The position numbers were made by a program, and so were the translations under genes. Under the pieces are notes generated by a model that searched no databases, was not told where the DNA came from, and saw only the letters and a list, made by a program, of their open reading frames with translations. A stretch of DNA of 64,000 bases from assembly GCA_964581105.1 (NCBI GenBank), contig CAZOMB010000001.1:79730-143729 (forward strand), written 5' to 3'. How positions within the stretch are numbered: the first letter of the stretch is position 1; each line of letters begins with the position of its first letter. The stretch is from Candidatus Micrarchaeota archaeon (GTDB lineage: Archaea; Micrarchaeota; Micrarchaeia; Anstonellales; Anstonellaceae). Shown piece after piece: positions 4,780 to 42,028 of this stretch.

Positions 4780-4815
4780 GATAATGCCTCTCTTTGTTGT
4801 TTATTAATACTTTTG

Positions 4816-9149: not shown

Positions 9150-9664
9150 AAAATCCTTCCTTTTTTGCCCCAAACCTGCACTTTTAGGGTTGCAATCGAA
9201 TCGTTCATCAGCACAAGCCTTTCTGTGCTTATTGCCAGTGTTGTGCTGTTGTTAAGGTCTGCTGAAATTCCAAATGAATAAAGCAGGGCTGTTGAGTTGT
9301 TCAAAGCAATGTAAATGTCAAACCTTCCTGCCCCCATGCTTTCCTTAATGTCCTGGTAATTGGTTGCATTCAATGACTCAAGCTTTGAGAATTTTGTTGG
9401 GGAAAGCCTGTTGCTTCTTGTTGCAAGGCCTATTGCGCTTGCATTTTCCATTTCACTTTGTTCCCAGCCAGAAGGCTCTCCAGGCGAAAGCACAAGCATG
9501 TCTGATATTCCGAAAAGCACTGTCTGCATTTCCCTTTCCATTTTCTCTTCTGAGTAAGCAGAGTGCATTGCAGCCCATATTGCAACAAAAAGCATTAAGG
9601 CGCCTATGAAAAGGGCAGATGCAATTACCAGCTCTGCTGAAAATATTTGCGCCTTTTTTTCCAT
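9146..9664 (-). CDS. pilin-like protein (class III signal peptide)
   Basis: N-terminus MEKKA|QIFSAELVIASALFIGALMLFVAIW has the shape of an archaeal type IV pilin signal peptide. Lies in an operon with the other pilins. Confidence 0.5.
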   Translation of the reverse strand: MEKKAQIFSAELVIASALFIGALMLFVAIWAAMHSAYSEEKMEREMQTVLFGISDMLVLSPGEPSGWEQSEMENASAIGLATRSNRLSPTKFSKLESLNATNYQDIKESMGAGRFDIYIALNNSTALLYSFGISADLNNSTTLAISTERLVLMNDSIATLKVQVWGKKGRIL

Positions 9665-10959: not shown

Positions 10960-12681
10960 TTCTCAGAGGCTGCACAGTATTTTGAGGAAATTGAGAATAC
11001 TGCCTCAAGGCTTTCAATGTCAGGCATTGTGTCAGAGCTTCTCTCAAAGTGCTCAAAAGAAGAGGTCAAGCCCCTAATATATATAATAGAGGGAAATGTT
11101 GCGCCTTCCCATGAAGGGCTTGACATTGGCATAGGCGAAAAGTTTGCAATAAGGGCAATTTCAAAAGTATCTGGCTTTAATGAAGGGAAAGTTGCGGAAG
11201 ATTACAAGAAATCCGGTGACTTGGGAACAACTGCTGGCAACTTTATGTCAAAAAAGGCGCAGCAGTCTCTTGCCTCGTCACCAAATTCTGTGCTCAAGGT
11301 TTACTCCTCTTTTGTGAAAATAGCCAAGCTTTCAGGCTCTGGAAGCCAGGAAAGCAAGATTTCGCTGCTTTCTGAGCTTTTGAATGGAGCAACACCTGTT
11401 GAGGCAACCTATTTGGTGCGCTTTTGCTTAGGAAAGCTGAGATTAGGGGTTGGCGACCCTTCAATAATAGATGCTCTTTCAATGCTCAAAAAAGGGGACA
11501 AGAGCGACAAGGAGAAACTTGAACGCGCATTTAACCTGTGCTCTGACTTGGGAACTGTTGCAAAGGCATATATTGATGGTAGGGGATTGTCCTCTTTTTC
11601 TGCAGCTCCATTCAAGCCAATAAGGCCTGCCCTTGGTGAAAGGCTGCCAACTGCAGAGGAGATAATAAAGAAAATAGGAAAATGCGCTGTTGAGGCAAAG
11701 TATGACGGCTTGAGAATGCAGGTGCATGTGCAAGGGGAAAAAGTGGAGATATATTCCCGAAAGCTTGAGAAAATGACGCACATGTTCCCTGAGATAGTAA
11801 AAGCAGCAAAAAGCCTGAAAATAAAGTCAGCAATATTTGAAGGGGAAGCTCTTGCCTATAACTCAAAGGAAAACAAATATTATTCATTCCAGCAGACCAT
11901 ACAAAGGAAAAGAAAGTATGGCATAAGCGCAATGGCAAAGGATTTTCCTTTGCGGCTTTTCATATTTGACTTGCTTTTTTTGGATGGCAAGGATTTGACG
12001 CTTGCAAAATATTCGCAAAGGAGGAAAAAGATTGAAAGGCTGTTTGGCAAATCAAAAGTTCTAATTCCATCTGAGCAGATAATTACAGACAAGCCAAAAA
12101 AACTTGAGTCATTTTTCAAAAAATGCATAAAACAGGGGCTTGAGGGAATAATTGCAAAAGACCTTGACCAGCCTTATGTTGCAGGAGCAAGGAAATTTGC
12201 CTGGATAAAGCTGAAAAAGTCATACGGGGCAATGGCAGATACAGTTGATGCTGTTATAGTTGGCTACTACTTAGGAAAAGGAGCAAGGCAGGAATTTGAG
12301 TTTGGGGGCTTACTTACAGCTGTGCTCAATGAAAAGACAGGGGAGCTTGAGACAATAGCAAAAGTGGGCAGCGGCTTTTCAGAGGAAGAAATGCAATCAT
12401 TTGAAAAAATGCTTGGGAAAATAACCGTAAAGAAAAAGCCTGTAAAAGTAAAGTCAAAACTTGTGCCAGACTTCTGGGTAATTCCAAAGTATGTCATAAC
12501 AGTTGCAGCTGATGAGATTACGCTTTCGCCAATGCATACATGCGGCATGAAGGGGGATAAGGGATATGCATTGCGCTTTCCCAGGATGATGCATCTGCGC
12601 GAAGACAAGGGAATAGCTGAGGCAACCACAACAAAGGAAATAATTTCACTGTTTGAAATGCAGAAAAAAAGGTTAGGCTAG
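10954..12681 (+). CDS. lig: ATP-dependent DNA ligase
   Basis: Motif I KYDGLRMQVHV (KxDG adenylation lysine); motif EGIIAKDLDQPYVAGARKFAWIKLK; N-terminus MQFSEAAQYFEEIENTASRL typical of archaeal LigI-family ligases; 575 aa. Confidence 0.9.
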   Translation: MQFSEAAQYFEEIENTASRLSMSGIVSELLSKCSKEEVKPLIYIIEGNVAPSHEGLDIGIGEKFAIRAISKVSGFNEGKVAEDYKKSGDLGTTAGNFMSKKAQQSLASSPNSVLKVYSSFVKIAKLSGSGSQESKISLLSELLNGATPVEATYLVRFCLGKLRLGVGDPSIIDALSMLKKGDKSDKEKLERAFNLCSDLGTVAKAYIDGRGLSSFSAAPFKPIRPALGERLPTAEEIIKKIGKCAVEAKYDGLRMQVHVQGEKVEIYSRKLEKMTHMFPEIVKAAKSLKIKSAIFEGEALAYNSKENKYYSFQQTIQRKRKYGISAMAKDFPLRLFIFDLLFLDGKDLTLAKYSQRRKKIERLFGKSKVLIPSEQIITDKPKKLESFFKKCIKQGLEGIIAKDLDQPYVAGARKFAWIKLKKSYGAMADTVDAVIVGYYLGKGARQEFEFGGLLTAVLNEKTGELETIAKVGSGFSEEEMQSFEKMLGKITVKKKPVKVKSKLVPDFWVIPKYVITVAADEITLSPMHTCGMKGDKGYALRFPRMMHLREDKGIAEATTTKEIISLFEMQKKRLG

Positions 12682-13647
12682 ACCCTGGACTTCTGAAAAC
12701 TGGAGGAAGAAAATTGTTGCAAGGTAAATCACATACAGTGCAAGCATTACAAAGCCGCCTCTTGCTTTTACCCTCTTGTTTACTGCTGCCAGGTAGAAGA
12801 ATACTATGTTTGCAACAACTGCGAAAAGCAAGGCTGCCATAAATACTTTTAGCTGGACAAACATTGGGCTGATTGCAGCGCCAGCCCCAAGAACCAGTGT
12901 CAGGTTTGCCATATTTGAGCCAATTGCATCTCCAATTGCAAGCCCATATTCCTTTCTCCTTAAAGCCTGAAGGTCTATTGATATCTCAGGAAGGGATGTG
13001 CCAATCGCTATTATTGTTGCGCCTATGAAGCTTTTTGCAAGCCCGAAAATGTTAGCAAGCTGTACTGCTGAGCCCACAACAAAGCTTGAGCTTATTATAA
13101 CAATCAGGACTCCTGCCCCAAAAAATAGGAATGCCTTAAAGCCCTCATGCATTGAAAGCTTTCCTTCTTTTGGCATTTGCTCTATTGTCTTTTTTCCAAG
13201 TATCCTAAATGCATACCATGCGCCTATTATGAGAAGCAAAAGCCCTTCGTAAAAGCCAAGAGCATCCCCAAAAACTTGCGAGTGGAGTATTATATATGCA
13301 GAAATTATAGTAGTGAGAAGCAGGGCAAGCCCAATGTCTGGCAATATCTTTTTTGAGACCTTAAGCCCATAAATAATTGCCCCTAACCCAAGAACAAGAA
13401 GCACATTTGCTATATTTGAGCCAAATACGTTTCCTGCTGCAATTGCGCCTTCTCCTGCTGCTGATGAAATCACTGAAACAGAAAGCTCTGGGAGGGAAGT
13501 TGTTACAGAGATGAGAAGAAGCCCTATTGCAAGCTGGCTTACTCTGAAAAATCTTGCCAATTTAGAGGCATTTGTAACAACCAATGAAGCTGACTTTGCA
13601 AGAATAACTGTGGAAATGATTAGTATCAGAAGCTCCTGGAGTGCCAT
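12673..13647 (-). CDS. Ca2+/cation antiporter (CaCA family, YrbG/NCX-like)
   Basis: Two alpha-repeat signatures, GNVFGSNIANVLLVLGL and GDAIGSNMANLTLVLGAG, in a ~10-TM protein. Confidence 0.75.
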   Translation of the reverse strand: MALQELLILIISTVILAKSASLVVTNASKLARFFRVSQLAIGLLLISVTTSLPELSVSVISSAAGEGAIAAGNVFGSNIANVLLVLGLGAIIYGLKVSKKILPDIGLALLLTTIISAYIILHSQVFGDALGFYEGLLLLIIGAWYAFRILGKKTIEQMPKEGKLSMHEGFKAFLFFGAGVLIVIISSSFVVGSAVQLANIFGLAKSFIGATIIAIGTSLPEISIDLQALRRKEYGLAIGDAIGSNMANLTLVLGAGAAISPMFVQLKVFMAALLFAVVANIVFFYLAAVNKRVKARGGFVMLALYVIYLATIFFLQFSEVQGLA

Positions 13648-13699: not shown

Positions 13700-13951
13700 T
13701 CACCCCTTCTTTTTCTTCCACTGCTTCTCGTGCCATCTAGCAATGTCCTTGTTTATTTTCCTTGAGATCTCCATGACATCTTTCTCAGTAGCCTTGCTGT
13801 TGGCAGTGAGCCGGTTGAGAAGCTCCAGCTGCTCTGCTTTCTGCCTCCAAGCCTGTCTTGCAACCTCTGACCAGTTCATCTCTGGGTACTTGTCCAGGAG
13901 TTTCTTCAGTTCCACATCCATTGAGATTGTCATGTTCACCATTTTTATCAC
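13700..13951 (-). CDS. small ribbon-helix-helix-like DNA-binding protein (putative transcriptional regulator)
   Basis: N-terminus ..MTISMDVELKKLLDKYPEMNWSEVARQAWRQKAEQLE resembles an RHH beta-strand plus two helices, followed by a basic C-terminus. A palindrome GTGTATACAC sits between its TATA box and start codon. Confidence 0.35.
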   Translation of the reverse strand: MIKMVNMTISMDVELKKLLDKYPEMNWSEVARQAWRQKAEQLELLNRLTANSKATEKDVMEISRKINKDIARWHEKQWKKKKG

Positions 13952-14068: not shown

Positions 14069-15655
14069 CTATCTTTTTGCAAGCGAGTAGATGTCCCATT
14101 TTATTGTTTTTTTCTTTTCAAGCTCTTGCCCAAGCTGGTCAAGGACTGATTGTTTTGCCTTTTTGTAATCATCCTTTGGAATTTCAGCATTTCCTATAGC
14201 ATTTCTCTTGTTTTTTGTGTTAAAGCAGAACATAGAGTCATGCACATTTTCACAGTTGTGGGAAAAATACAAATCAGTGCATTCCTCGCAGTTGTCAACC
14301 TCAAAGCACCGGACAAGCCGCTTTGAGCGGAATGCCTTCATGCAAAAGGATGACTGCCATACTGATGAAGAGCCGAAAATGTTCTCTGATTCCCTTGGCC
14401 AGAATGAGTAGGCGCACTTTTTTGAGTGGACAGTTGCCTCGCAGCGATAGCAGTTTTCAGAGTATCCCATTGCAAAGCAGTCAATCATGTTATGGACTTT
14501 TCCTATCCTGTCATCAAGAGAGCAGTATGCAACAGGGTGGAATATTTCTGCCAATTCTTTTGGGTCAGGAATGATTTTCCCAGTATCAAGTTTACTCAAT
14601 GGTACTTTGCCGATTTCATTGATTTCATCCTCTGAAACAAATCTGCCATTCAGCTTGAACTTTTTACCAATGTACGCAAGGTAGCCTCCAAGAAGCACTT
14701 TTCTCCCTGTGAATGGGGAGGTAAATTGCATTCCCTGCAAAACATCCCTTTGCAGGAATTTTTCATATTGTTTTATTCCTGCTAGTGGCTTTGCAACAAG
14801 GATGGATGAGGTTTTTGTGAAGCTTTCTTCAATTGGCTTCAAATTCCCTTTTTCAGGCTCTGGTGGTATTGCTATTTTTATCTCTGGCTTTTTTTCCCTT
14901 GCAAAGTCAAGTATTTCAAAAATGGAGAAAACCTTTTTTTCTTTTTTCAGGGAACCAACAATTTCTTCAAGAAGCTTTGATTTTACTGCTAGGTATTTTT
15001 CCTTTCCAACTTCAAGATTGCCAATAAGATATGACTTGTTCCTTGGACCAAAAGAAAACATGCATTCGCGGCAGTTTTTGCACTGGACTGAGTAATAGCA
15101 GTCGCTGCTTGCCATTAGTGTGCAGCACTCAAAGCATCTTTTTCCCTTGTGGTTGTCAACTGAATTTATTGTGAATGAGGACTGGGCATCTGCAGTTGAG
15201 CCAAACATGTATTCGCAAAAGCGAATCATTGTGCAAAAAGCAATGTATTTTGAGTCAGAAACTATTGTTGAGCCAAGGACATAGTGGCTGTCAACAACAT
15301 TGCTTGATTCTTCCACGAATTTTGAATTTCCAAGCACTATGTTCCCAGTATAATGGATTCTTTCCTGCATTGCCGATATTATGCTGTCTATGTCCTTGAT
15401 TTCATTTATTGAAAGTGGAGTGAAGCTTTTGCTGAAATCAACCTCATCAGAGCCCAAAAAGTTAGCGCCATGCTTGAATGATTCTGATGGCATTATAACT
15501 TTTTTCCCAGAAACTGTTGAGCTTTCAACAAACCTTTTTCCTGCATATGCTGAAAGGTATTCTGAAAACTCGTCAAGCTCTCCTATTTCCTGGCTGAAAA
15601 TGGCCTTGCAGGTTGCTTTCCAAGCCCTATTCAGGTAGTCATGTGTGCTTAACAT
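14069..15655 (-). CDS. Cys-rich two-module protein, paralog A of an unrecognised family (~528 aa from the internal Met)
   Basis: Collinear homology over the full length with ORFs 18172-19773 and 23926-25478. Shared blocks include NRAWKATCK, IKDIDSII, YTGNIVLGNS, CKNCRECMFSF, IGNLEVGKEKY and the C-terminal CEECTDLYFSHNCENVHDSMFCFNTKNKRNAIGN..IYS. No signal peptide. The likely start is MLSTHDYLNRAW (15653-15655), by alignment with the paralogs. Confidence 0.6.
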   Translation of the reverse strand: MLSTHDYLNRAWKATCKAIFSQEIGELDEFSEYLSAYAGKRFVESSTVSGKKVIMPSESFKHGANFLGSDEVDFSKSFTPLSINEIKDIDSIISAMQERIHYTGNIVLGNSKFVEESSNVVDSHYVLGSTIVSDSKYIAFCTMIRFCEYMFGSTADAQSSFTINSVDNHKGKRCFECCTLMASSDCYYSVQCKNCRECMFSFGPRNKSYLIGNLEVGKEKYLAVKSKLLEEIVGSLKKEKKVFSIFEILDFAREKKPEIKIAIPPEPEKGNLKPIEESFTKTSSILVAKPLAGIKQYEKFLQRDVLQGMQFTSPFTGRKVLLGGYLAYIGKKFKLNGRFVSEDEINEIGKVPLSKLDTGKIIPDPKELAEIFHPVAYCSLDDRIGKVHNMIDCFAMGYSENCYRCEATVHSKKCAYSFWPRESENIFGSSSVWQSSFCMKAFRSKRLVRCFEVDNCEECTDLYFSHNCENVHDSMFCFNTKNKRNAIGNAEIPKDDYKKAKQSVLDQLGQELEKKKTIKWDIYSLAKR

Positions 15656-15780
15656 AAAACTCCGGGAAAAACTTGAAGATGGGAAAATAAAAAGCTGCGT
15701 GCCTTTTTCTGCAAAATGATACGAAAAACCCATTTAACGTCGTAAAAGCAAAAATTCTCAGAACGCGCGGGTTCGGGAAC

Positions 15781-15793
15781 GTATATAAATTTA
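15781..15793 (+). promoter_or_regulatory. TATA box and leader of ftsZ1 (GTATATAAATTTA), preceded by the GC-rich box GAACGCGCGGG
   Basis: TATA-like element ~30 nt upstream of the ftsZ1 ATG. The whole ~55-nt promoter/leader is ~75% identical to the region upstream of ftsZ2. Confidence 0.45.
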
Positions 15794-15820
15794 ATTGCAG
15801 TATTAGGTTCGGCGATCAGC

Positions 15821-16885
15821 ATGGACAGTTTAGTAAAATCAGTCCTAGGAGAGCAAGAGTCAGCTCAACAGCCGGAATCTTTTGGCTCAGACCAGATTAA
15901 GATTGTGACACTCGGTGTAGGAGGAGGCGGAAACAACACAATAAACAGGCTTATTCGCTCAGGAGTAAAGGGATGCGAGCTTGTGGCAGTTAACACTGAC
16001 AGGCAGCACCTGAATATGATCCACGAAAAAGCCAAAAAGGTCCTCATCGGAAAAACCATTACCAAGGGGCTTGGGGCCGGCGGATACCCGGAAACAGGCA
16101 CCAAGGCAGCAGAAATTGACAGGCCACTTCTTGAGAAAGAGCTTGAAGGGGCTCACCTGTGCTTTATCTGCGCAGGAATGGGCGGAGGCACTGGAACCGG
16201 AGCAGCACCTGTAATTGCAGAGGTTGCAAAGGAGCAGGGAGCCATCGTCGTTGCAATGGTAACATATCCCTTTAACCTTGAAAGGGCACGAAGGGTAAAA
16301 GCCGATGAAGGAATCGCAAAACTTCGCAAGAATGTTGATTCAGTCATTGTTCTTGACAACAACAGGCTGGTAAAGCTTGTGCCAAACCTTCCAATGAACG
16401 AGGCGTTTGCAGTTGCAGACGAAATTCTCGCAAAGGCAGTTGGAGGACTTGTTTGGACAATTACCCAGCCAAGCCTGATAAACATCGACTTTGCTGATGT
16501 GCGAGCAATCGTACAGGGCGGAGGCGTTGGCTTTATTGCTGTCGGCGAAGGAAAGGGAACCGACAAAGTCAGGGGAGCTTCTGAAGGAGTTCTCAAGAAC
16601 AGGCTTCTTGATGTTGACTATGAGGGTGCAAATGGCGCGCTCATACACATATCAGGCGGTGCTGACCTGACACTTGGGGATGCCATCAAAGCAGGTGAAA
16701 TAATCACTGAAAGGATGGACCCGCAGGCAAATGTCAAGTGGGGAGCAAGGCTCATACCAGGATACGATGGAAAACTGGAAATAGTTGCCATTGTAACCGG
16801 GGTAAAAGGAGCAAACATCTTTGGCGCAGGAGCAGACGAGCCAAAGAAAGAGGCATCCTACCAGGACATAGAAATTATCGGCTAA
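15821..16885 (+). CDS. ftsZ: cell division GTPase FtsZ (paralog 1)
   Basis: Tubulin/FtsZ signature [11 protein letters not shown] and [20 protein letters not shown]; 354 aa. Confidence 0.9.
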
Positions 16886-16910
16886 GCAACAATTTGTTTC
16901 AATCTGCAAT

Positions 16911-17012
16911 CCAGCGCTTGGATCCGCATACTTCGGCAGAAGTTGCGGAGACAGTGGAATCGCAATTCCACTGGAATTCCTAACCCTCCTGGCGCTGGTT
17001 GTTTGTTTTTTA
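16911..17012 (+). other. compound multi-hairpin structured element plus U-tract downstream of ftsZ1 (terminator and/or small ncRNA)
   Basis: A perfect 7-bp closing stem CCAGCGC...GCGCUGG (16911-16917 / 16992-16998) encloses two perfect hairpins, CCGCAUACUUC-GGCA-GAAGUUGCGG and CAGUGGAAU-CGCA-AUUCCACUG. A U-run follows (UUGUUUGUUUUUU). Confidence 0.35.
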
Positions 17013-17047
17013 TTAAGGATTAGCGGGAGCTAGATTTTTGAAATCGA

Positions 17048-18040
17048 TTACTTGTTTAGCTCAGGAAACTCAACAGGAATGTCCCTAAACTGGTCTATTT
17101 TGTAAATGTAAGTCGGCTCAACCCTTTGTATTATGTCTGAGAACTTGTATTTCATCTCATGCATTATTTTCCTGAAAGGCTCCCCCCTTTCAACTTCAAC
17201 ATCAATTACCAAATCCCAGTAGCCAAGCACGCGAAGGTGGTGGACTATGTTTGGGTGCATCTGGCAATATGTAAACAGCATTTTTTCCTTTTGCGAAGTC
17301 ATATTAGCAAGCTTGAAAAGGACCCTGTGGCGCGGCTTTCCTATAAGCACATGGTCTGGCAAAATGGTATAGCTTTGTATTATGCCTGTGCTCTCAAGCT
17401 TTTTGATTATGTTTTTTGCAGACATTATTGATATACCCGTATTTGCCGCTATTTTTACAAGAGATACCCTGGCATTGTGGTTTACCATTGACAGGACTTT
17501 TCTTTCGGTTTCCTTAAGCTGTATTTGCTTTACGTCTGCGCCTGTGAACGCTGTGTATTCCTTTTTTGGCTGGGCTTTTTCCTTGATAAGGTATGAGCGG
17601 TGGAACTGCGTAAAGCCTATTGGTATTGTTGTGTCATATTCCCTGAAGTTTTTGCTGAACTTGTTGTTAAGCTCAGTGATTATCTGCTGCAAATGGAATA
17701 TTCCTTTTGCACATATTGCTATGATAAGGTCAGCATATCCCTCCCCCCTCATTATTATCGGGATAAACCTGTGCCTGTTAAGATAAGTATAAAGCTCTTT
17801 TTCAGATTTTTCATCCATGTTCTGCAGCTTGAAAAAATACTGGCCGAAAAAATAGCCTGCTTTCCTGTACTCCACCATTGGCCAGCAGTACTGCAATACT
17901 CCTGACTCGTACAGGTTTTCAACCCTGTACTTTACTACTTGCGGGCTGGTGCGAAGTGATTTTGCTATAAAGCTATAGGACTTTCGCGAGCCCTGGTCAA
18001 GCAGATACAGAATTTTCCTGTCCAAAGTATCAATGCCCAT
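17048..18040 (-). CDS. tandem (duplicated) Lrp/AsnC-family transcriptional regulator
   Basis: Two HTH_AsnC-like segments (LDRKILYLLDQGSRKSYSFIAKSLRTSPQVVKYRVENLYESGVL and ERKVLSMVNHNARVSLVKIAANTGISIMSAKNIIKKLESTGII), each followed by a RAM-like domain; 330 aa. Confidence 0.65.
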   Translation of the reverse strand: MGIDTLDRKILYLLDQGSRKSYSFIAKSLRTSPQVVKYRVENLYESGVLQYCWPMVEYRKAGYFFGQYFFKLQNMDEKSEKELYTYLNRHRFIPIIMRGEGYADLIIAICAKGIFHLQQIITELNNKFSKNFREYDTTIPIGFTQFHRSYLIKEKAQPKKEYTAFTGADVKQIQLKETERKVLSMVNHNARVSLVKIAANTGISIMSAKNIIKKLESTGIIQSYTILPDHVLIGKPRHRVLFKLANMTSQKEKMLFTYCQMHPNIVHHLRVLGYWDLVIDVEVERGEPFRKIMHEMKYKFSDIIQRVEPTYIYKIDQFRDIPVEFPELNK

Positions 18041-18171
18041 ACTTTTAAATAATCAATTAAAACTTATAAATTTAACTAATTTTTAAAAAAAATGAGCCAG
18101 AAATTATAAATATAGGATTATACCCAATAGGACACACGAGAAGACACTGATAATAACATAAGAGGGAGCTT

Positions 18172-19773
18172 ATGGGCATAAACAGCGCATGGAAATCAAC
18201 CTGCAAGGTTCTCCTGAAAGAGGAGATTGGCGACCTCAAGGGCTATGAGTATTACCTGAAAAAATTTATGGGCCCTGTGAGCGCAAAAAGAAAGTCAGTG
18301 CTGTCAGGAAAACAAGTGACAACTGCTGATGATGATTTTGGGCTGCCAACCAGGTTTATCTCAAATTCAGAGAGGGAGCAATATGCTAAGCTGTACTCAA
18401 AGCCTTTTGACATCAACAGGATAAAAGACATTGACTCTGCCATCCAGGAGCTTGAAGAGCGCTTCATTTACTCAGGAGACATTGTGCTTGGAAAGTCAGT
18501 GGCTGTTGAAAACTGCCAAAGGTGCACAGATGTTTCAGATACTTATTGGTCACAGGATGTTTCTGACAGCAGGAATATTGCCTATTGCTCAATGCTGCGC
18601 TATTCAACTTTTGTTTTCGGGTCAGACTGCACAGGGGAAATAGATTTTGTTATCAAGAATTTCCAGGGCTGGAAGAGCAGAAGGCTTATGGAAACAACAA
18701 ATACCCAGTACTGCTCAGATGTTTACTTTAGCGCAAACATGAGGTACTCTGCAGAGTGCATGTTCTGCTTTAATCAGGAAGGAAAAAGAAATATGATAGG
18801 GAATTTGCAGCTTGGCAAAGATGAATATTCTAAGCTCAAGCAAAAGCTGGTTGAAGATATTAGAGGAGAGCTTGGGTCAAAAAAAGATATTGTGTCAATA
18901 AATGAGCTTCTTGGCGCGCCTCCAAGGGCAGGCAAATGCGAAAAAAGGCCTGCAACCTGGGATGTTGGTGGAAAAAAACATTTTGCAAGTGATTGCCCGC
19001 AAGAGCTGGACAAGGCATTTGCTTCTGCCTGCTCAGTGCTTTTTGGAAGAAAGCTATCAGGAAAAATGACTGATTATGAGAAATGGCTCATGAAAAATGT
19101 GCGTGCGCCGCCTAAGTCAAAAAGTAAGTTATCAGGAAAAAGCCTTTACATTTTGCCAATCCTGTTCAATGAGCCTGTGAGAGACACGCACATAAGCCTT
19201 GAGGAGGCAAGGCAGGCGTCACGACTTCATATTTCTGAAGAGGATGCACAAAAGCTGTGCATCTCAAATGCAAAGCAAATACTAAAGCCAGTTGCACTTT
19301 TCACGTCAGATGTAAAGCTGGGGGAAAATGTCCAGGTAAAAGACACTGTGAGCTTTGCTGATTCAATAAATATTTTTGGCAGCTCAACAATGTATGGCTC
19401 AAAAAACTGCGCATATGGCTGCTGGGTGTCGCACAATGCTGAAAATATGTTTGGCTGCGACCACACCTTTTACTCAAAATTCTGCATTCATGCATACAGG
19501 TCCCTAAAGCTTGTAAGATGCTTTGAAATCAGCGACTCAAAGGACTGCTCTGACTGCTTTTTTTGCCACAACTGCGAAAACTGCCATGAATGCATGTTCT
19601 GCTTCAACGTGAAATCAAAGCGCTATGCAATAGGCAATGTTGAGGTGGGAAGGGAAAAATATTCCAAAATCAAGAAGATGCTGCAGCAGGAGATTGCAAA
19701 AAGGCTTGAAGAAAAAAAGGAAATTGGCATTGGAATTTACAATATAGGGTGTCAAATCAAGGGAAAAAAGTGA
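18172..19773 (+). CDS. Cys-rich two-module protein, paralog B of the same unrecognised family (533 aa)
   Basis: Homologous to 14069-15655 and 23926-25478. Motifs SAWKSTCKVLLKEEIGDL, IKDIDSAIQ, YSGDIVLGKS, ECMFCFNQEGKRNMIGNLQLGKDEY. The C-terminal module contains a regular C-x2-C array, DCSDCFFCHNCENCHECMFCFNVKSKRYAIGN, ending IYNIGC. Confidence 0.6.
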   Translation: MGINSAWKSTCKVLLKEEIGDLKGYEYYLKKFMGPVSAKRKSVLSGKQVTTADDDFGLPTRFISNSEREQYAKLYSKPFDINRIKDIDSAIQELEERFIYSGDIVLGKSVAVENCQRCTDVSDTYWSQDVSDSRNIAYCSMLRYSTFVFGSDCTGEIDFVIKNFQGWKSRRLMETTNTQYCSDVYFSANMRYSAECMFCFNQEGKRNMIGNLQLGKDEYSKLKQKLVEDIRGELGSKKDIVSINELLGAPPRAGKCEKRPATWDVGGKKHFASDCPQELDKAFASACSVLFGRKLSGKMTDYEKWLMKNVRAPPKSKSKLSGKSLYILPILFNEPVRDTHISLEEARQASRLHISEEDAQKLCISNAKQILKPVALFTSDVKLGENVQVKDTVSFADSINIFGSSTMYGSKNCAYGCWVSHNAENMFGCDHTFYSKFCIHAYRSLKLVRCFEISDSKDCSDCFFCHNCENCHECMFCFNVKSKRYAIGNVEVGREKYSKIKKMLQQEIAKRLEEKKEIGIGIYNIGCQIKGKK

Positions 19774-19810
19774 ATTCCTACGAACGCGCGCGCGTGCGCA
19801 TTTAGGAAAT

Positions 19811-19850
19811 CTATTTAAATGTGCTTGCAGTAGTAAATGCGGCGACCAAG
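19811..19850 (+). promoter_or_regulatory. ftsZ2 promoter/leader paralogous to the ftsZ1 promoter (TATA CTATTTAAAT, conserved TTGCAGTA..CGGCGA.CA..ATGGA); the ATG homologous to the ftsZ1 start opens an 8-codon uORF at 19851
   Basis: Base-by-base alignment with 15761-15825 gives ~75% identity including spacing. The ATG at 19851 is followed by an in-frame TAA at 19875. The real ftsZ2 ORF begins 81 nt downstream, in the same frame. Confidence 0.4.
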
Positions 19851-19931
19851 ATGGAATGCTTTGTAACGTCTGAGTAATAATGCAAGGCGTTAGCGGAAGC
19901 ATCATCCAGGTTACAAAACAAAAGATGGGGG

Positions 19932-20987
19932 TTGGGCTATATGTTTGAAAGCGTATCTTCGGAAAAAAAGGAAACAGAAACACTCATGAGCAATGAGGAG
20001 GTAAGAATAGCTGTAATTGGAGTCGGCGGAGCGGGCTGTAACACTGTTGGAAGGATGATGAGAAGCGGGATAAAAAGTGCCCAGACAATCGCTGTTAATA
20101 CTGACCAGCTTCATTTGAAAGTCACAAATGCGCACAAAAGGGTTTTGATTGGCTCAAATATCACAAAAGGGCTTGGGGCAGGAGGATTTCCTGAGGTTGC
20201 CACAAAATGCGCTGAAATGAGCAAAGGAAAACTTACAGAAGTAATTGGCCCCCGTGAACTTGTTTTCATTGCAGCAGGAATGGGAGGAGGCACTGGAACC
20301 GGAGCAGCACCTGTAATTGCAGAGGTTGCAAAAAACCAGGGAGCAACAGTTGTTTCTGTTGTTACAATCCCATTCAGGCTTGAAAGGGCAAGAGTGCAAA
20401 AGGCAAAATGGGGCCTTGAAAGGCTTGCAGCAGTTTCAGACACTGTTATAGTGATTGAAAATGACAGGCTTGTGAATTATGTGCCTAACCTTCCTATCAA
20501 TGATGCATTTAACCTGGCAGACGCAATCACTGGCAAGGCAATTACAGGGATTGCTGACACCATAATGTTCCCGTCACTTATGAACATTGACTTTGCAGAT
20601 GTTAAATCTGTGATGGACAATGGGGGCTTTGCCTTGATTTCAATGGGTGAGGGCAGAGGGCCTGACAGGATTGAGCAGGTTGCAAGAAGCACTCTTGAAA
20701 ACCCTCTGCTTGATGTTTCTGCTGAAGGCGCAAAAGGGGCATTGCTTCACATTGGAGGAGGCCCGCAGCTTACCCTTGGAGAGGGAATTGACATTGGAGA
20801 GAAGATTTCAGAGAGCTTTGACCTGAATGCTGACGTAAAAATAGGCGCAAGGCTTGACCCAACCCTTGGAGACGGGCTTTCAGTAACTGCAATAGTAACT
20901 GGCATACACAACCCATATGCACAAGGGACAGCAAAAGCAGACAAGCAAGCCGAAAAAGTCGTGGAAATGGATGTAATCAACTTCTGA
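19932..20987 (+). CDS. ftsZ: cell division GTPase FtsZ (paralog 2); first ATG at 19941 (the ORF-track start at 19932 is TTG)
   Basis: GVGGAGCNTVGRM and [23 protein letters not shown]; 351 aa. A 48-nt tract within the GGGTGTG region is identical to ftsZ1. Confidence 0.9.
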   Translation: MGYMFESVSSEKKETETLMSNEEVRIAVIGVGGAGCNTVGRMMRSGIKSAQTIAVNTDQLHLKVTNAHKRVLIGSNITKGLGAGGFPEVATKCAEMSKGKLTEVIGPRELVFIAAGMGGGTGTGAAPVIAEVAKNQGATVVSVVTIPFRLERARVQKAKWGLERLAAVSDTVIVIENDRLVNYVPNLPINDAFNLADAITGKAITGIADTIMFPSLMNIDFADVKSVMDNGGFALISMGEGRGPDRIEQVARSTLENPLLDVSAEGAKGALLHIGGGPQLTLGEGIDIGEKISESFDLNADVKIGARLDPTLGDGLSVTAIVTGIHNPYAQGTAKADKQAEKVVEMDVINF

Positions 20988-21028
20988 TTCCACTTTCTTT
21001 TTCTTTATTTTTTCCATCAAAAAGGATA

Positions 21029-21161
21029 GTGGACTGAGGGGGATTTTCAGTCCTTTTTCCAGTTTTTGGTGAAGCTTTTTGCGCCAAAGGCGGAAAAAGG
21101 TTCTTTGAACCCCCGGCCTCGTCGTTGCGAACGACGCGCTCTACCGCTGAGCTATCAGCCC
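21029..21161 (-). tRNA. tRNA-Ala (anticodon CGC) with a ~60-nt intron in the T-loop
   Basis: Minus strand: GGGCUGA-UA-GCUC-AGCGGUA-GAGC-G-CGUCG-UUCGCAA-CGACG-AGGCC-GGGGG-UUCA[intron]AAU-CCCCC-UCAGUCC-A. The G3:U70 pair is the Ala identity element. The intron GAACCUUUUUCCGCCUUUGGCGCAAAAAGCUUCACCAAAAACUGGAAAAAGGACUGAA shares its core with four other tRNA introns in the window. Confidence 0.7.
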
Positions 21162-21224
21162 GTGAATTTGAAATTTGCTTGAAGAGTTTAAAAAGCACTT
21201 CCTCTCTAATAATATCGTGTTCAC

Positions 21225-21869
21225 ATGAAAGTCGCTGTTTTGTTTTCAGGGGGCAAGGACTCTGTTTTTGCTGCGTTTTGCTGCCTTTTTTCTGGCTGGG
21301 AGCCAATTCTTCTTACTATTGAGCCTGAAAAGCACTCAACTATGTTCCATCATCCTAATGTAAAATGGTGCAAAAACCAGGCAAAAGCCATGAAACTTCC
21401 AATAGTCAGCATAAAGGCTGATGGAAAAGGGGAAGAAAAAGAGCTTCTTGCAATGAAAAATGCCCTCAAGAAACTGAAAGTACAGGGAGTTGTGTCAGGG
21501 GCAATTGAAAGTGAGTACCAAAAGCAGAGGATTGGCAAAGTGGCGCATGAGCTTGGCATAACAAGCTTTTGCCCTGTCTGGAGGACTGGCAAAGCTTTGC
21601 TTGAAGAGCAGTGCAAATACTTTGAAACTTATTTGGTTTCTGTTGCTGCACAAGGGCTTGGCAAAGGGATGCTTACTAAGAGGTTTGATGCTGACTTTGT
21701 TGAGAAGCTTGGGAAACTAAAGCCTCAGGTCGCAAAAAACCTTGAAGGGGGGGAAGGCGAGACATTTGTTGCAAATGCCCCATTCTTCAAAAAAAGGCTG
21801 AAAATAAAAAAATGGAAAACCTCGTTTGACGGCTCTCAGGGGGCTGCAGAAATTTCCAAATTAACCTGA
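21225..21869 (+). CDS. PP-loop ATP pyrophosphatase (MJ0570/diphthine-ammonia-ligase-like, COG2102 family)
   Basis: N-terminal PP-loop VAVLFSGGKDS; C-terminal EGGEGETFVANAPFFKKRLKI resembles the MJ0570-family motif; 214 aa. Confidence 0.55.
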   Translation: MKVAVLFSGGKDSVFAAFCCLFSGWEPILLTIEPEKHSTMFHHPNVKWCKNQAKAMKLPIVSIKADGKGEEKELLAMKNALKKLKVQGVVSGAIESEYQKQRIGKVAHELGITSFCPVWRTGKALLEEQCKYFETYLVSVAAQGLGKGMLTKRFDADFVEKLGKLKPQVAKNLEGGEGETFVANAPFFKKRLKIKKWKTSFDGSQGAAEISKLT

Positions 21870-22517
21870 TTTTCCTGCTATTGACTCAAGCTTGTCTATT
21901 ATCCCATTAAGCTCCTGGCCATATGCTGCTCTTACGCTTATTGATGAGGAAAATATTGCCTCTACTGGGAGCTCCTTTTTCAAATGAATTGTATTGTCGC
22001 CAAATGCTGTTTCGCTTGATATTGGTATTGTTGCCTTTATCGGCACGTTTTCATCAAGGAAAAAGGAAACAGGCTGGCCAGTGCTGCTTATGCCGACAAC
22101 CTGTGCGTCAACTGGTATTACAAAGTCTAAAGGCAAATCAAATGTTTTTGGGAAAAGGTCCTTTATTGGGTATTGCCTGTCAAGAACAATTGTTGTTTGC
22201 ACTGGGGCAGACATTGTTATATCCCTGTCCTGCAGGGCCTTGAGGTCTTCTGCTATGCCAAGAAGCTTTTCTTTTTGCGACTCTGAAAGCTGCTTGTCTG
22301 CAAAAAATGCCCCATAAAAGCTGGCAAGTGCAATGACAAGCGCAATTGCTGCCAAAAGAAGCGGAAGGTTGCTTTCTGCAGGAAACTGCATCCTTTGTTG
22401 TGGTTGTGGGCTTTTCTGCCCGCCTGCAGGCGGAGAATAAGAATAAGGCTTGCTCTCTGCTTTCCCTGTGTTGCTTGAAAATCTGCTTGGAAGGGTTGAA
22501 ACCATGAATACCACCAA
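21861..22517 (-). CDS. hypothetical membrane-anchored protein
   Basis: Pro/Gln/Ser-rich N-terminus, a single TM helix (LPLLLAAIALVIALASFYGAFF), then a coiled-coil-like segment. No known motif. Confidence 0.4.
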   Translation of the reverse strand: MVVFMVSTLPSRFSSNTGKAESKPYSYSPPAGGQKSPQPQQRMQFPAESNLPLLLAAIALVIALASFYGAFFADKQLSESQKEKLLGIAEDLKALQDRDITMSAPVQTTIVLDRQYPIKDLFPKTFDLPLDFVIPVDAQVVGISSTGQPVSFFLDENVPIKATIPISSETAFGDNTIHLKKELPVEAIFSSSISVRAAYGQELNGIIDKLESIAGKSG

Positions 22518-22576
22518 GCAGATTCCTCAGGGGAGGATTATAAATGTTAAGTGAGGATTTTTTGCGAGGGGTTTGT

Positions 22577-22855
22577 ATGCCAAAAATAGTTTTCAAAAGC
22601 GACGGAAAGGAAATAGAGGTTGAAAAAGGAACGCCGCTGGTTCAGGCTGCAGAGGATGCCGGCGCAAGCATAACATTTTCATGCAAGGCAGGTGTATGCG
22701 TTTCATGTATCATAAATGTAGTCAAAGGAATGGAAAACTTAGGGGAGAAAACCGAGAATGAAAAGGCCACTTTGGAAGGGTTTGGGGCAAAGCCAAACCA
22801 GAGGCTTGCCTGCCAGTGCACAGTGAACGGCGACGTGGAAATTGAGAATCCGTAA
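22577..22855 (+). CDS. [2Fe-2S] ferredoxin-like protein
   Basis: CKAGVCVSC (C-x4-C-x2-C) plus a distal ..ACQC.. cysteine, with a beta-grasp-like layout; the start MPKIVFKSDGKEIEV is inferred. Confidence 0.55.
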   Translation: MPKIVFKSDGKEIEVEKGTPLVQAAEDAGASITFSCKAGVCVSCIINVVKGMENLGEKTENEKATLEGFGAKPNQRLACQCTVNGDVEIENP

Positions 22856-22966
22856 TTTTTTGCTTTTGCTTTTCTGAACTGTTTTAAACTCTTCTTAGCC
22901 TAACTTCCACCATGCCGAGTTGGCAGTTATAGTGCTGAGGCACTGCCTGCCAACATCGTCAAAATT

Positions 22967-23050
22967 GCCGAGTTGGCAGAATCCGGTATTGCGCTAGACT
23001 TGAGATCTAGTGCCCTTCGGGGCTTAGGAGTTCGAATCTCCTACTCGGCG
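22967..23050 (+). tRNA. tRNA-Ser (anticodon UGA), intron-less, type II
   Basis: GCCGAGU-UG-GCAG..CCGGU..-CUAGA-CUUGAGA-UCUAG, long variable arm UGCCCUUCGGGGCU, T arm AGGAG-UUCGAAU-CUCCU, acceptor 3' ACUCGGC-G. A T-run follows. A 14-nt direct repeat of its 5' end (UGCCGAGUUGGCAG) lies 53 nt upstream, at 22913-22926. Confidence 0.75.
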
Positions 23051-23053
23051 TTT

Positions 23054-23812
23054 TTATTTGAAAGGCTTGCTTTTCTTCCAGAATTCCTCAAAATAGGCCA
23101 TAAAGCTATCTGCAACCTCCTGGCTAACTATCTCTATTGTTATTGGCTTTGAAGAAATTACGCAAATTGCTGCAGTGTCCTTGTAGCACATGTACCAGGT
23201 AGGGCTGTTCAGCTCTATTGGCATGTACCTGGCTTCATTTCCCTTGAAGCTGTTCCTGTTAACAAGCACTTTTCTCAAGGTTTTTGGATGGAAAAGCATC
23301 TTGCTTTTTATGCCTGCCTTTATTCTCCTTAAATGGTCGCGCTGCCAGTATGCATGGTGCGCCTCTGGCTGGCCATAATGAATCCCAAAGTAAACATAGG
23401 TTTCCCCCCTTTTCAGCTTCTGGTATGTGTGCTCATGGGCAGTTATCATGCCTTTCATGCCCTCATAGATTGTTACTTTGCTCCTTTCCCCTAAATTCTG
23501 CAATGCTGCAAATGAAGGCATCTGCTTTTCAAGCTCTTTGTGGCACAACACCATTTCCTGTTGCTTCTTGCCAATATAATCAAGAAGCTGGTTTGGGGCA
23601 GAAGCCTGGTAATATTTTATCTTTCTCTTTATTATGTGAGAAACAAGCCCTTTTTCTGTAAGGCGTGAAAGTATCTGGTATATTATTGAGCGGGAAACGC
23701 CTGCCTTTTGGGCTGCCTTGCCTGCTGATGAAAGGCCTGCCTCAAGCAAAGCAAGATATACTTTTGATTCGCCGCCTGTAAGCCCTGCTTTTTTGAGAAG
23801 ATCTTCCCTCAT
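23054..23812 (-). CDS. TrmB-family transcriptional regulator
   Basis: N-terminal winged HTH LTGGESKVYLALLEAGLSSAGKAAQKAGVSRSIIYQILSRLTEKGLV is typical of TrmB; 252 aa with a C-terminal sensor-like domain. Confidence 0.7.
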   Translation of the reverse strand: MREDLLKKAGLTGGESKVYLALLEAGLSSAGKAAQKAGVSRSIIYQILSRLTEKGLVSHIIKRKIKYYQASAPNQLLDYIGKKQQEMVLCHKELEKQMPSFAALQNLGERSKVTIYEGMKGMITAHEHTYQKLKRGETYVYFGIHYGQPEAHHAYWQRDHLRRIKAGIKSKMLFHPKTLRKVLVNRNSFKGNEARYMPIELNSPTWYMCYKDTAAICVISSKPITIEIVSQEVADSFMAYFEEFWKKSKPFK

Positions 23813-23925
23813 GAAAGTGGTTTGTCTTTAGACCTATTTAATGCTTTGCATAATGTGCACCAGTGGTGGTGTGCTATTATATAAATATAAGGCAGGTGAA
23901 ATTAAGTGTTAGGAGAAGGATTTAT

Positions 23926-24714
23926 ATGGATACAACAGCAGAGAAAACCGCTGTGCTTGCAGCCCTTGAAAGAGCATGGGCAGGCACTTGCAGGGTTGTG
24001 CTCATGGGAGAGGTTGGGCCATTGATGGAATTTGAGCCTTACTTAACTAGGAGGAAGGAGAAGTGCAGGCTTGAAAAGTCATTAATATCTGGAAAGCGGG
24101 TTGCAGTGATTGGCACTTACCCAAAAGGAAGCAGATTCATATCTGACAAAGAGGCTAAACAATACCTGGAAAAAACCAAGGGCATGAAGCTGGACATAAA
24201 TTCAGTAAAAGACATTGACTCTGCTATTGGAGCATTCTCAGAAATTGCAGCATATGCAGGAGATGTAGTGCTTGGAAGGTCATACGGGGTTTTGGAATCA
24301 ACAAAAGTTGTTGAGTCAAGCTATGTGTTTAGCTCATCTGATGCGATTTACAGCAAGTTCATAGCATTCACGCAAATAGCCAAATACTCTGAAAATGTTT
24401 TTGGATGCATAAGCGCTGGAAAAAACTCCCGCTTTGCAATAGCCTGCGCAGAGTCTTATGAGTCTGCACGAACATTTGAGTGCTTTTATGTGTACCATGC
24501 TTCAGACTGCGTTTACAGTGCAAACGTTGAAAACTGCCAGGACTGCATTTTCAGCTTTAACTTAAGGGGAAAGAGGAGGTGCATTGGCAACCTTGAGCTT
24601 GCCCCTGACAAATACAGGCAGTTAAAGGAAAAGCTGCTCTCAGAGGCAAGGCAAATGCTGTCGGAAAAGAAGAGCCTGCCATCAATATATGACATTGTGA
24701 GGGGAAAAACATGA
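23926..24714 (+). CDS. Cys-rich family paralog C, N-terminal module (split gene, part 1)
   Basis: Aligns along its length with the N-terminal halves of paralogs A and B (ERAWAGTCRVVLMGEVGPLMEFEPYL, INSVKDIDSAI, YAGDVVLGRS, CQDCIFSFNLRGKRRCIGNLELAPDKYRQLKEKL). It ends in the inter-module linker with a TGA that overlaps the next ATG (ATGA). Confidence 0.6.
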   Translation: MDTTAEKTAVLAALERAWAGTCRVVLMGEVGPLMEFEPYLTRRKEKCRLEKSLISGKRVAVIGTYPKGSRFISDKEAKQYLEKTKGMKLDINSVKDIDSAIGAFSEIAAYAGDVVLGRSYGVLESTKVVESSYVFSSSDAIYSKFIAFTQIAKYSENVFGCISAGKNSRFAIACAESYESARTFECFYVYHASDCVYSANVENCQDCIFSFNLRGKRRCIGNLELAPDKYRQLKEKLLSEARQMLSEKKSLPSIYDIVRGKT

Positions 24715-25478
24715 GGGAAATAGAAAAGAACTTTGAAACTGTGGCTTCAGTCATACTGGGAAAGCCAGTTGGCCAGCTTCAGGACTATGAAGAGTGGCTG
24801 CTTTCCTGTTCTCCAGAGGCAAGGATAGTTGAAAAAAAGTCAGTTGATAGTGGAAAAAGCGTATACTCATGCTCTGCCCCTTTCTTTTTGGACCTTGGTG
24901 ACAGGGTGGTAAGGGTTGATGAAGCCCTGAAAAGAGGGCAAATGAAGCTTGGCGAAAAGGATGTCAATTCACTTTCCATTTCCAATGCTCCAAAGCTCCT
25001 TTCAGAAATAAGCATAACAACCCCTGAGATAGTTTACGGGGAGAACTTTGGAACTGAAGAATGCTCTGCATATGGCCCGACTCAGCAATGCTTTAGGACA
25101 ACTACATGCTGGTTTTGCAAGCACATAGCATACAGCTACTGGACAAGGACCAGCAACAACTGTTTTGGCTGCTCGCTTGTGACAGACTGTTCATTTTGCA
25201 TAAAGTGCTACAACTCAACAAAGCTTTTGCGCTGCTTAGAGGTAGATACTAGCAACAGCTGTGCAGACTGCCTGTTTTGCCATAACTGCGAAAATCTTTC
25301 TAACTGCATGTTCTGCTTTAATGTGAAAAATTTGAGGTATGCTGTTGGAAATCAGGTGGTTGGGAAAGAGGAATACCTTAGGATAAGGGGCATCTTGTGC
25401 AGCAATATACTTGAAAGCCTTGAGAAAAAGAAAAAGTTTGACCTTAGCATCTACAACATTGGATGCAGGAAGAATTAG
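24711..25478 (+). CDS. Cys-rich family paralog C, C-terminal module (split gene, part 2)
   Basis: Aligns with the C-terminal halves of paralogs A and B (FETVASVILGKPVGQLQDYEEWLL; CADCLFCHNCENLSNCMFCFNVKNLRYAVGNQVVGKEEY; ..LSIYNIGC). Confidence 0.6.
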   Translation: MREIEKNFETVASVILGKPVGQLQDYEEWLLSCSPEARIVEKKSVDSGKSVYSCSAPFFLDLGDRVVRVDEALKRGQMKLGEKDVNSLSISNAPKLLSEISITTPEIVYGENFGTEECSAYGPTQQCFRTTTCWFCKHIAYSYWTRTSNNCFGCSLVTDCSFCIKCYNSTKLLRCLEVDTSNSCADCLFCHNCENLSNCMFCFNVKNLRYAVGNQVVGKEEYLRIRGILCSNILESLEKKKKFDLSIYNIGCRKN

Positions 25479-41386: not shown

Positions 41387-42028
41387 TCAGTAGAGCTTTT
41401 TAGCATATTCTAGCTGGAGACGCAACAAATTATTTTTTATTTGAGTTGTTTCAGCAAGCCTCCCACCTGCTTTTAGCCATTCAAGACAGTTTTTGTTTAG
41501 GTAAAGGTCTGCAAACGAGCTTTCTACTCCGTTTGTGGCAACATGGAGAAAAAAGAGCGCTGTTGCAATGTCTTTTGAGGTTGCTGTCTTTGGCAGTTTA
41601 CCAGAGCCAAGAAGGTTAAGAAAAACAGTCTTAGTTTTCTCTGTCAATTTGATTCTGAAAAAATGTGAAAAGAATGCTGCCCCTAAAGCCCCTTTCTTGG
41701 AAAGGAAAAGGGTGCGGGAGTCTGGCTCAAAAGACGGCCTTGAAGAAGTCGATACATTCAACCCAAGGATCTGAGATACATTAGACAAATCTCTTACAGG
41801 CTTAAGTTCAGAAAGAGTTTTGCTGACAACCCTTTTTGATTCTGTTACTGGTTTTTCATATGTTATATATTCTCCAAGAAAGACCATTTTCCCTTTTTTA
41901 TATGTCTGTTTTTCCCTTAGCTCAATTGGAGAACTGGGGATTTTCTCAAGAAGCTTGTTTATGTTTGAAAACCTTGGATTTGATCTCACAAACTCGTGCA
42001 TTATCTGCTGTGTGATTACGTTTTTCAT
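41387..42028 (-). CDS. hypothetical protein (213 aa)
   Basis: ORF with coding-like composition; 4-nt overlap with the giant gene upstream; no motif recognised. Confidence 0.35.
   Translation of the reverse strand: MKNVITQQIMHEFVRSNPRFSNINKLLEKIPSSPIELREKQTYKKGKMVFLGEYITYEKPVTESKRVVSKTLSELKPVRDLSNVSQILGLNVSTSSRPSFEPDSRTLFLSKKGALGAAFFSHFFRIKLTEKTKTVFLNLLGSGKLPKTATSKDIATALFFLHVATNGVESSFADLYLNKNCLEWLKAGGRLAETTQIKNNLLRLQLEYAKKLY

Follow-up and report, generated by a model that had tools for sequence, protein, structure and literature searches.

Three paralogous genes around ftsZ1 and ftsZ2 of a Candidatus Micrarchaeota archaeon belong to a large family of two-module, cysteine-rich proteins with a predicted thin beta-solenoid fold

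Do cysteine-rich proteins that are encoded on either side of two ftsZ genes take part in cell division, or is their position an accident of one genome? The question is raised by a stretch of 64,000 nucleotides from a Candidatus Micrarchaeota archaeon (assembly GCA_964581105.1, contig CAZOMB010000001.1, positions 79,730 to 143,729; hereafter the window), in which three paralogous genes bracket ftsZ1 (15821-16885, plus strand; Pfam Tubulin and FtsZ_C) and ftsZ2 (19932-20987, plus; assigned by Pfam), both treated here as context outside the system under study. Copy A (528 aa; 14069-15655, minus) is divergent from ftsZ1, copy B (533 aa; 18172-19773, plus) precedes ftsZ2, and copy C is divided into two genes, C1 (262 aa; 23926-24714, plus) and C2 (255 aa; 24711-25478, plus). 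An earlier note, made from the letters of the window, had suggested either a module co-duplicated with ftsZ or a functional link to division. We find that A, B and C1/C2 are probably best explained, as a whole, as three anciently diverged members of a large family of soluble proteins of about 530 aa, and there is strong support for the picture of a two-module pseudo-dimer of thin Cys/Ser-ladder solenoids, multiplied by ancient paralogous expansion, recurrently paired with transcription factors and without a conserved tie to ftsZ.

All four open reading frames (ORFs) that had been marked in the window were confirmed, and the three copies align collinearly over their full length at 33-39% identity (tblastn E=1e-77 to 1e-87 among the window copies; A-B 1e-85, A or B against C1+C2 1e-77 to 1e-82), no further copy being found by tblastn in the window. 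Longer ORFs are possible for A (to 15733) and C1 (to 23863); homology with the relatives starts at the first-noted starts. The N-terminal and C-terminal halves of B are themselves homologous (31% identity over 243 aa, E=1e-29), so the description of full-length paralogs with two modules, of about 250 aa apiece, is correct: in B, which like A is of the fused form, module 1 comprises about residues 1-240, the linker residues 241-275 and module 2 residues 276-533. Among the shared motifs quoted in the note, the cysteine array (SDC..C..CMF(C/S)FN) and the IGN segment (K/RxxxIGNxE/VxxxxY) are present, whereas the IYNIGC tail is limited to B and C2, A having IYSLA. The absence of a signal peptide was borne out by a hydropathy scan, in which neither a signal peptide nor a transmembrane segment was detected (highest 19-aa Kyte-Doolittle hydropathy 1.21). 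A C-terminal IYNIG serving as an export tag was considered and rejected, because the same motif also closes module 1 and is hence an element of the fold.

A word-indexed search with B returned 542 relatives, and all named ones among them are "hypothetical protein" of Candidatus Micrarchaeota, Micrarchaeia or Anstonellaceae. An exhaustive profile search gave 1,994 representatives (50%-identity clusters) at E<=1e-3, 348 of which reach E<=1e-30. For the survey of gene neighbourhoods we used the 75 best loci in species-representative genomes of GTDB (cited by L numbers), which all derive from metagenome-assembled genomes (MAGs) of Micrarchaeota, and for residue statistics 303 non-redundant members; the family so far appears to be confined to this phylum. 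The note had not recognised the family, and the libraries searched by profile likewise gave no usable match: the four window proteins matched nothing in Pfam (E<=1), in NCBIfam or among the PADLOC defence models, and 70 relatives yielded nothing in Pfam beyond one marginal zf-CXXC match (1/70). Neither the full-length profile nor a solenoid-only profile matched PDB sequences, and Foldseek against PDB and BFVD gave nothing significant. The only library match is phrog_15341, a phage family hit by 47 of 70 members (best E=2.8e-9) over the module-2 solenoid; the likeness concerns the repeat region only and offers no functional lead, because that family has no annotated function, and tblastn found no relatives in INPHARED phages or IMG/VR contigs. 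A conserved defence-island context was not seen in our data, and a DNA mimic of the Qnr/MfpA kind was rejected on account of a median isoelectric point of 7.7 and a net charge near zero. Keyword searches in those Micrarchaeota papers that could be searched found no description of the family. The fold class is known, but the family itself appears to be undescribed, as do its size, the two-module build of its proteins and its restriction to one streamlined phylum of DPANN.

The tie to ftsZ was surveyed from both sides. Eighty orthologous metagenomic loci (776 kb) encode FtsZ1 at 69-96% identity to that of the window, and in 60 of them ftsZ2 follows ftsZ1 in the same orientation, the gap having a median of 246 bp (interquartile range 126-371), within the conserved order lig-(Na/Ca exchanger)-ftsZ1-ftsZ2-Dph6-orf218-ferredoxin. 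FtsZ1 and FtsZ2, which in the window are 53% identical, are an old tandem pair across the clade. Family sequence occurs in only two of the 80 loci, once as a full gene upstream of lig (L089) and once as a 124-aa ORF (L094:5976-6350, minus) corresponding to the last coils and helix of module 2; the latter is 65% identical to A, matches the family hidden Markov model (HMM) at E=6e-52, lies divergently upstream of ftsZ1, where A sits in the window, and from its sequence looks like a decayed A ortholog. Starting from the family, an ftsZ gene lies within 10 kb in four of the 75 loci (L013, L040, L043 and L049). In L040 and L043, ftsZ2 and ftsZ1 are adjacent and the family genes are 5-6 kb from ftsZ2, in the S10-Dph6 slot that C occupies in the window; their proximity is explained by this slot recurrently holding family genes. 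The B orthologs of L001-L004 (60-63% identity) are always accompanied by an Lrp-type regulator and then by more family genes or an ATPase gene described below, never by ftsZ, and the nearest relatives of A (45-50% identity) sit in arrays of other genomes. Since the orthologs of A, B and C in other genomes are nearer to them (45-66%) than the three are to one another (33-39%), a co-duplication with the ftsZ pair is excluded, and the orthologs of all three are found neither between nor directly beside ftsZ genes.

It follows that the functional link to division that the note had proposed did not hold up, its linkage being conserved in neither survey, and that FtsZ-associated division factors, whether co-duplicated with ftsZ1 and ftsZ2 or acting with FtsZ, are an explanation close to refuted. 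What spoke for it was the position of A divergent from ftsZ1 and of B about 160 bp upstream of ftsZ2, the same arrangement in two independent samples of the same organism, and two family genes convergent with ftsZ2 in L013; against this stand the two surveys, the residence of the B orthologs with Lrp regulators in arrays elsewhere, and the fact that A, B and C predate the species split. In addition, ftsZ2 appears to have an AT-rich, TATA-like upstream stretch of its own: in the spacer between B and ftsZ2 (19774-19931) we read a GC-rich run, CGCGCGCGTGCGC, followed by TCTATTTAAAT, which would be consistent with a separate promoter for ftsZ2. Known FtsZ partners (SepF, ZapA, MinC and CdpB-type proteins) resemble the family through the adjacency to ftsZ in this one genome, and MinC also contains a beta-helix domain; the family differs from them in having no sequence or fold match and in the adjacency not being conserved. 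The adjacency is peculiar to this genome, and no division role is indicated.

The distance between ftsZ1 and ftsZ2 in the window is 3.05 kb because the Lrp regulator and B lie between them, and no relatives other than the seven closest have gaps of more than 1 kb at this place. Where FtsZ1 is 92-96% identical, i.e., in the closest relatives, either the spacer between the two genes, normally about 250 bp, or the sequence ahead of ftsZ1 measures 1.3-6.8 kb (L079:7230-10413, L082:3953-6867, L087:11065-13712, L089:9148-12148 and L090:2292-9092). We read ORFs of the five largest gaps as toxin-antitoxin, nucleotidyltransferase/HEPN and type I restriction-modification genes, labels that come from our own reading of the sequences, and the family HMM matched none of the ORFs in these five gaps. 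The space between the two division genes is an insertion hotspot. The ftsZ neighbourhood of this clade is therefore a variable region, which in the present genome holds three units of a family gene with or without a regulator.

An AlphaFold2 model of B, built on a 70-sequence alignment, reached a predicted local distance difference test score (pLDDT) of 89.7 and a predicted template modelling score (pTM) of 0.90. In the model each module consists of a helix-rich alpha/beta head of about 100 aa, a run of short strands of about 110 aa and a helix of 22 residues. The strand runs correspond to residues 100-212 in module 1 (18469-18807, plus), which is Cys-poor, and to residues 379-491 in module 2 (19306-19644, plus), which carries the C-x2-C run DCSDCFFCHNCENCHECMFCFN. 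When the sequence is set out in rows of 12, the two modules share a single register, e.g., S-x-x-C-S-D-C-Y-F-C-H-N and C-E-N-x-x-D-C-M-F-C-F-N, with small residues in columns 1, 4, 7 and 10, conserved aromatics in columns 8, 9 and 11, an Asn/Asp ladder in column 12, and R, E, F, H or N in the outward columns; the ladder columns of module 2 are 438/450/462/474 and 441/453/465/477. DSSP bridges in the model recur every 12 residues, and mutual information with average product correction, calculated over the 303 non-redundant members and independent of the model, shows a sharp peak at separation 12, which accounts for 19 of the short-range pairs among the 200 strongest covarying pairs. Two of these, Arg-Asp at 449-461 and Glu-Lys at 469-481, have the look of salt bridges between coils. 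Long-range covariation is swamped by the subfamily signal, and only the peaks at separations 12 and 4 and a Cys pair at positions 57 and 527 are usable. Register, DSSP and covariation together indicate a narrow beta-solenoid with 12 residues per turn in each module; it has the regular coil, the constant register and the stacking contacts one period apart that define this class, in line with the beta-solenoid that the note had guessed at and for which it had proposed a structure prediction. The high pTM suggests that the two modules are packed as an intramolecular pseudo-dimer, as far as the model can tell. The helices and the final three to four coils show the lowest sequence entropy, and the highest values belong to the linker (2.9 bits), the head of module 2 (2.5 bits) and the first coils, a pattern that may reflect a constant scaffold with variable recognition surfaces.

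The nearest analogue of such a coil is found in insects. Period-3 inward positions in a 12-residue coil are a feature of the Tenebrio antifreeze helix, and by analogy the small residues at every third position of the family coil would point inward; an inward ladder of period 3 composed mostly of Cys and Ser explains the C-x2-C-x2-C pattern. The likeness to the Tenebrio molitor antifreeze protein (1ezg) and to the thin antifreeze beta-helices of insects (1m8n) lies in the 12-residue coil and its period-3 inward set. However, the family has no sequence relation to them (Pfam AFP negative), neither the TCTxSxxCxxAx repeat nor the Thr-x-Thr (T-C-T) ice-binding face, and no secretion signal; its cysteines are not obligatorily paired and exchange with Ser, and its solenoid is tandem-duplicated and sits between an alpha/beta head and a helix. 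Left-handed beta-helix (LbH) proteins of the hexapeptide or gamma-carbonic anhydrase type, with an [LIV]-G-x4 hexapeptide, 18 residues per turn and the Pfam Hexapep model, do not fit either, as the period is 12 and no Pfam match exists; Foldseek hits to LbH-type structures had E>=0.84 and TM-scores of 0.1-0.2. Generic beta-solenoids also belong to the nearest known types of protein, such as curli CsgA (8c50), the phi29 gp12 appendage (3gq7) and the LbH-type LpxA (3r0s) and QdtC (3fs8).

The division of copy C into two genes could be taken as damage. C1 and C2 are ORFs in different frames that overlap by four nucleotides where the other copies are continuous, as expected of a frameshifted pseudogene; but the break falls exactly at the variable linker, the TGA of C1 and the ATG of C2 share an ATGA (24711-24714), and both halves retain all residues conserved in the family. 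In other genomes we found, by HMM coordinates, 24 N-half and 23 C-half genes, among them 18 same-strand pairs with the N-half followed by the C-half, the unpaired halves being located at contig ends or affected by problems of ORF calling. The split halves are each other's best relatives, as 73% (N) and 83% (C) of their top five cross-genome matches are split, compared with 5% and 2% for the modules of fused genes, and the nearest relatives of C1/C2 (L018 and L023, 46-48% identity) are split at the same linker. This shows that the split, which the note's wording could suggest to be damage, is an old, inherited and maintained architecture of a two-gene subfamily, judging from sequence relationships, and it practically refutes the pseudogene. 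The fixed order of N-half and C-half also supports the pair of module 1 and module 2 as the functional unit, which in this subfamily would be made from two translationally coupled genes.

Tandem arrays are one form in which the genes of the family are organised; the other is the solitary pair of one regulator and one family gene. Same-strand arrays reach ten family genes among the 75 loci (L017 and L063; sizes from tblastn, because spurious antisense ORFs interrupt some arrays in greedy ORF calling), and arrays of about seven are present in L002, L026, L034, L060 and L065; one 629-kb contig carries at least 12 copies of about 1.6 kb across L009, L017 and L044, about 3% of its DNA. De novo clustering of the ORFs in the 75 loci gave 203 family ORFs and three recurrent neighbours of the regulator type. 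A tandem-Lrp regulator adjoins family genes in 11 loci, often divergently, as it does with B in the window (17048-18040, minus; 330 aa with two winged helix-turn-helix domains, Pfam HTH_24 and HTH_AsnC-type); an HTH_10 regulator is present in 11 loci, usually within arrays; and TrmB adjoins family genes in five, more often divergently, as with C1/C2 (23054-23812, minus; Pfam TrmB). Orthologs of the Lrp regulator (57-81% identical where alignable) stand directly beside B orthologs in L002-L004 and L034, and a TrmB ortholog (48% identity) is divergent from a family gene in L010. Altogether a regulator touches a family gene in 26 of the 75 loci, and the regulators that the note had placed in the same block as the copies, confirmed here by Pfam, therefore represent a recurrent association. 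The divergent spacer between the Lrp gene and B (18041-18171) reads as very AT-rich, with several TATA-like boxes (TTTTAAATA, TTATAAATTT and TTATAAATATA); the one between the TrmB gene and C1 measures 113 bp.

A further neighbour is a soluble ATPase of the HerA/FtsK/TrwB superfamily (about 600-900 aa; Pfam DUF87, FtsK_SpoIIIE and TrwB_AAD_bind) with a Walker A motif near residue 210 and often a long acidic or Lys-rich tail. Its best NCBIfam match, CedD, is far below the cut-off, and its PADLOC matches, mad8 and HerA, are generic. In 25 loci the gene adjoins a family gene or is no more than two genes away from one (e.g., L021:12320-14326, L063:14886-17078, L071:18048-19835, and 22 others), usually convergently, and at or near the end of most arrays of at least four genes whose end is on the contig; a recurrent order is several family genes, HTH_10, one more family gene and then the ATPase. 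It is a conserved micrarchaeal gene (about 50% identity) and is absent from the window. In L001 (about 12075-13292) and L034 (20354-21563), a gene that by eye resembles a tyrosine recombinase adjoins the ATPase; judging from such sequence, some arrays may possibly lie in or beside integrated elements.

Family proteins contain a median of 4.5% Cys, compared with about 1% in neighbouring genes (B has 25 Cys and A 21), and the note had thought the cysteines more likely to bind metal than to form disulfides. The only Cys conserved at 90% or more is C477 (90%). Where a ladder position does not carry Cys, the residue is mainly Ser, next Ala, Val, Gly, Ile or Leu, and never His or Asp: Cys and Ser make up 46% and 50% at position 456, 46% and 24% at 462, 46% and 36% at 474, and 38% and 59% at 199. 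The best candidate for a Cys4 site (462/465/474/477) is complete in 24% of the members, and the quartets 459/462/465/468 and 181/184/193/196 in 25% and 21%, so that no Cys4 site of the zinc-ribbon, rubredoxin-like or Fe-S type is conserved across the family. Module 1, which has the same predicted fold, contains a median of 8 Cys and only one at the 5th percentile. We conclude from these patterns that the cysteines would primarily be core-packing residues of a very thin solenoid, and the exchange with Ser and the minority of full quartets make obligate metal binding unlikely. Cys57 in the module-1 head and Cys527 in the IYNIGC tail co-occur (phi 0.77; 69 members have both and 205 neither), which suggests that the C-terminal tail may dock on module 1 through a tail-to-head contact, a disulfide or a shared site; in B these residues are 470 positions apart (18340-18342 and 19750-19752) and are Gly57 and Cys527.

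Three further functions have to be weighed against a scaffold. Metal-binding proteins, with metal or redox chemistry as their function and with C-x2-C arrays that would be sites of the zinc-ribbon, rubredoxin-like or Fe-S type, would account for the C-x2-C...C-x2-C spacing on adjacent coils, the high Cys content, the complete sets in B and C2, the moderately correlated presence of Cys at neighbouring ladder positions (phi 0.4-0.6) and the marginal zf-CXXC match. As most members have incomplete quartets and Cys exchanges with Ser, we regard this explanation as unlikely, and the metal reading of the note is not supported for the family as a whole; Cys-rich members such as B and C2 may still have metal or disulfide chemistry. 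Paralogous enzymes, with an active site made of H466, N467, C477, E469 and K481 plus K85, D86, D88 and S89 of module 1 and with variable substrate-binding heads, are in our judgement rather unlikely. Among the 303 members, whose identity is otherwise 30-45%, these polar residues are kept at 91-99%, the modules are asymmetric (His466 only in module 2, KDxDS only in module 1), and the order of N-half and C-half is obligatory in split genes; yet several of the residues have a structural explanation, as the pairs 449-461 and 469-481 show the covariation at separation 12 that salt bridges between coils would give and N467 and N479 form an Asn ladder, no enzyme family is matched by sequence or fold, and no substrate-type genes are conserved nearby. 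The third possibility, that family members are cargo or partners of the adjacent HerA/FtsK/VirD4-like translocation ATPase, e.g., effectors transferred in host interaction, is quite unlikely in our view. It could draw on the adjacency in 25 loci, including most arrays of at least four, which is kept while the orientation varies, on the recurrent gene order, the Pfam assignments and the presence of the ATPase, too, in Micrarchaeota. However, the gene is usually convergent and hence not co-transcribed, it is so well conserved that the adjacency may be plain synteny, it is missing from the window, no membrane channel or pilin genes are conserved beside it, and IYNIG ends module 1 as well and is not a free export tag. 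Beyond this, we mention as a long shot that the family may be the variable repertoire of a Micrarchaeota-specific ATPase-centred system, whose members, dozens of two-module solenoid paralogs each under its own regulation, would be cargo, adaptors or structural subunits handed to or acting on the host in episymbiosis, with full-ladder members possibly carrying a redox- or metal-active core.

The reading that we prefer is that of cytoplasmic binding or scaffold modules, in which the conserved C-terminal coils would form a constant core, held by the inter-coil pairs R449-D461 and E469-K481 and by the Asn ladder, and the more variable heads and first coils would set the partners specific to each paralog. 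Each paralog or array might be switched by its neighbouring transcription factor, and a specific role with FtsZ would not be involved; the present genome has three solo units in a variable region around the conserved block of lig, ftsZ1, ftsZ2 and Dph6. We infer this binding or scaffold function, with regulator-switched paralogs, from sequence patterns, and four observations weigh against it or its scope: the conservation of H466 (99%), C477 (90%) and K85/D86/D88/S89 goes beyond what a scaffold alone would need and may point to a catalytic or ligand site; L013, L040, L043 and L049 do place family genes within 10 kb of ftsZ; a weak tail of about 1,250 representatives (E 1e-10 to 1e-3) lies outside the taxonomic check, so that the restriction to Micrarchaeota is not proven; and phrog_15341 shares the repeat.

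Micrarchaeota genomes measure about 1 Mb, and at least 12 copies on a single contig represent a notable cost in a streamlined symbiont. About 2,000 distinct public members exist, none annotated or covered by a Pfam model. A costly family that is kept, with dedicated regulators and a conserved neighbour of the DNA/protein-translocase superfamily, may well serve biology that is peculiar to the lineage, for instance the interaction with a host. Its proteins would also show that thin beta-solenoids with a core of Cys and Ser occur naturally in the cytoplasm. The analysis also removes a tempting false lead, as paralogs bracketing two ftsZ genes resemble a division module and are a local accident.

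As to the remainder of the window, the DNA is itself micrarchaeal, sharing with Ca. Anstonella LFW-35 and with a Micrarchaeota MAG labelled RIFCS 90-93% identity in FtsZ1 and 84% in EF-1alpha. Other neighbours assigned by Pfam are a diphthamide synthase, a 2Fe-2S ferredoxin and a Na/Ca exchanger. A 2,031-aa ORF (42025-48120, minus) has no Pfam match at E<=1e-4. An 83-aa ORF (13700-13951, minus) that separates A from the Na/Ca exchanger gene also lacks a Pfam match; it is conserved in L090 (81%), and part of it recurs in L094 ahead of a RelE-like ORF. Its product may be an antitoxin-type protein with a ribbon-helix-helix fold. A secretion-type ATPase gene (T2SSE/archaeal; 3052-4779, minus) adjoins the gene of a 1,081-aa protein with CBM_4_9 and two Laminin_G_3 domains (4816-8061, minus), and a 377-aa Laminin_G_3 protein is encoded at 8040-9173 (minus); the genes of this region (3052-9173) are likely a pilus or surface-adhesion cluster.

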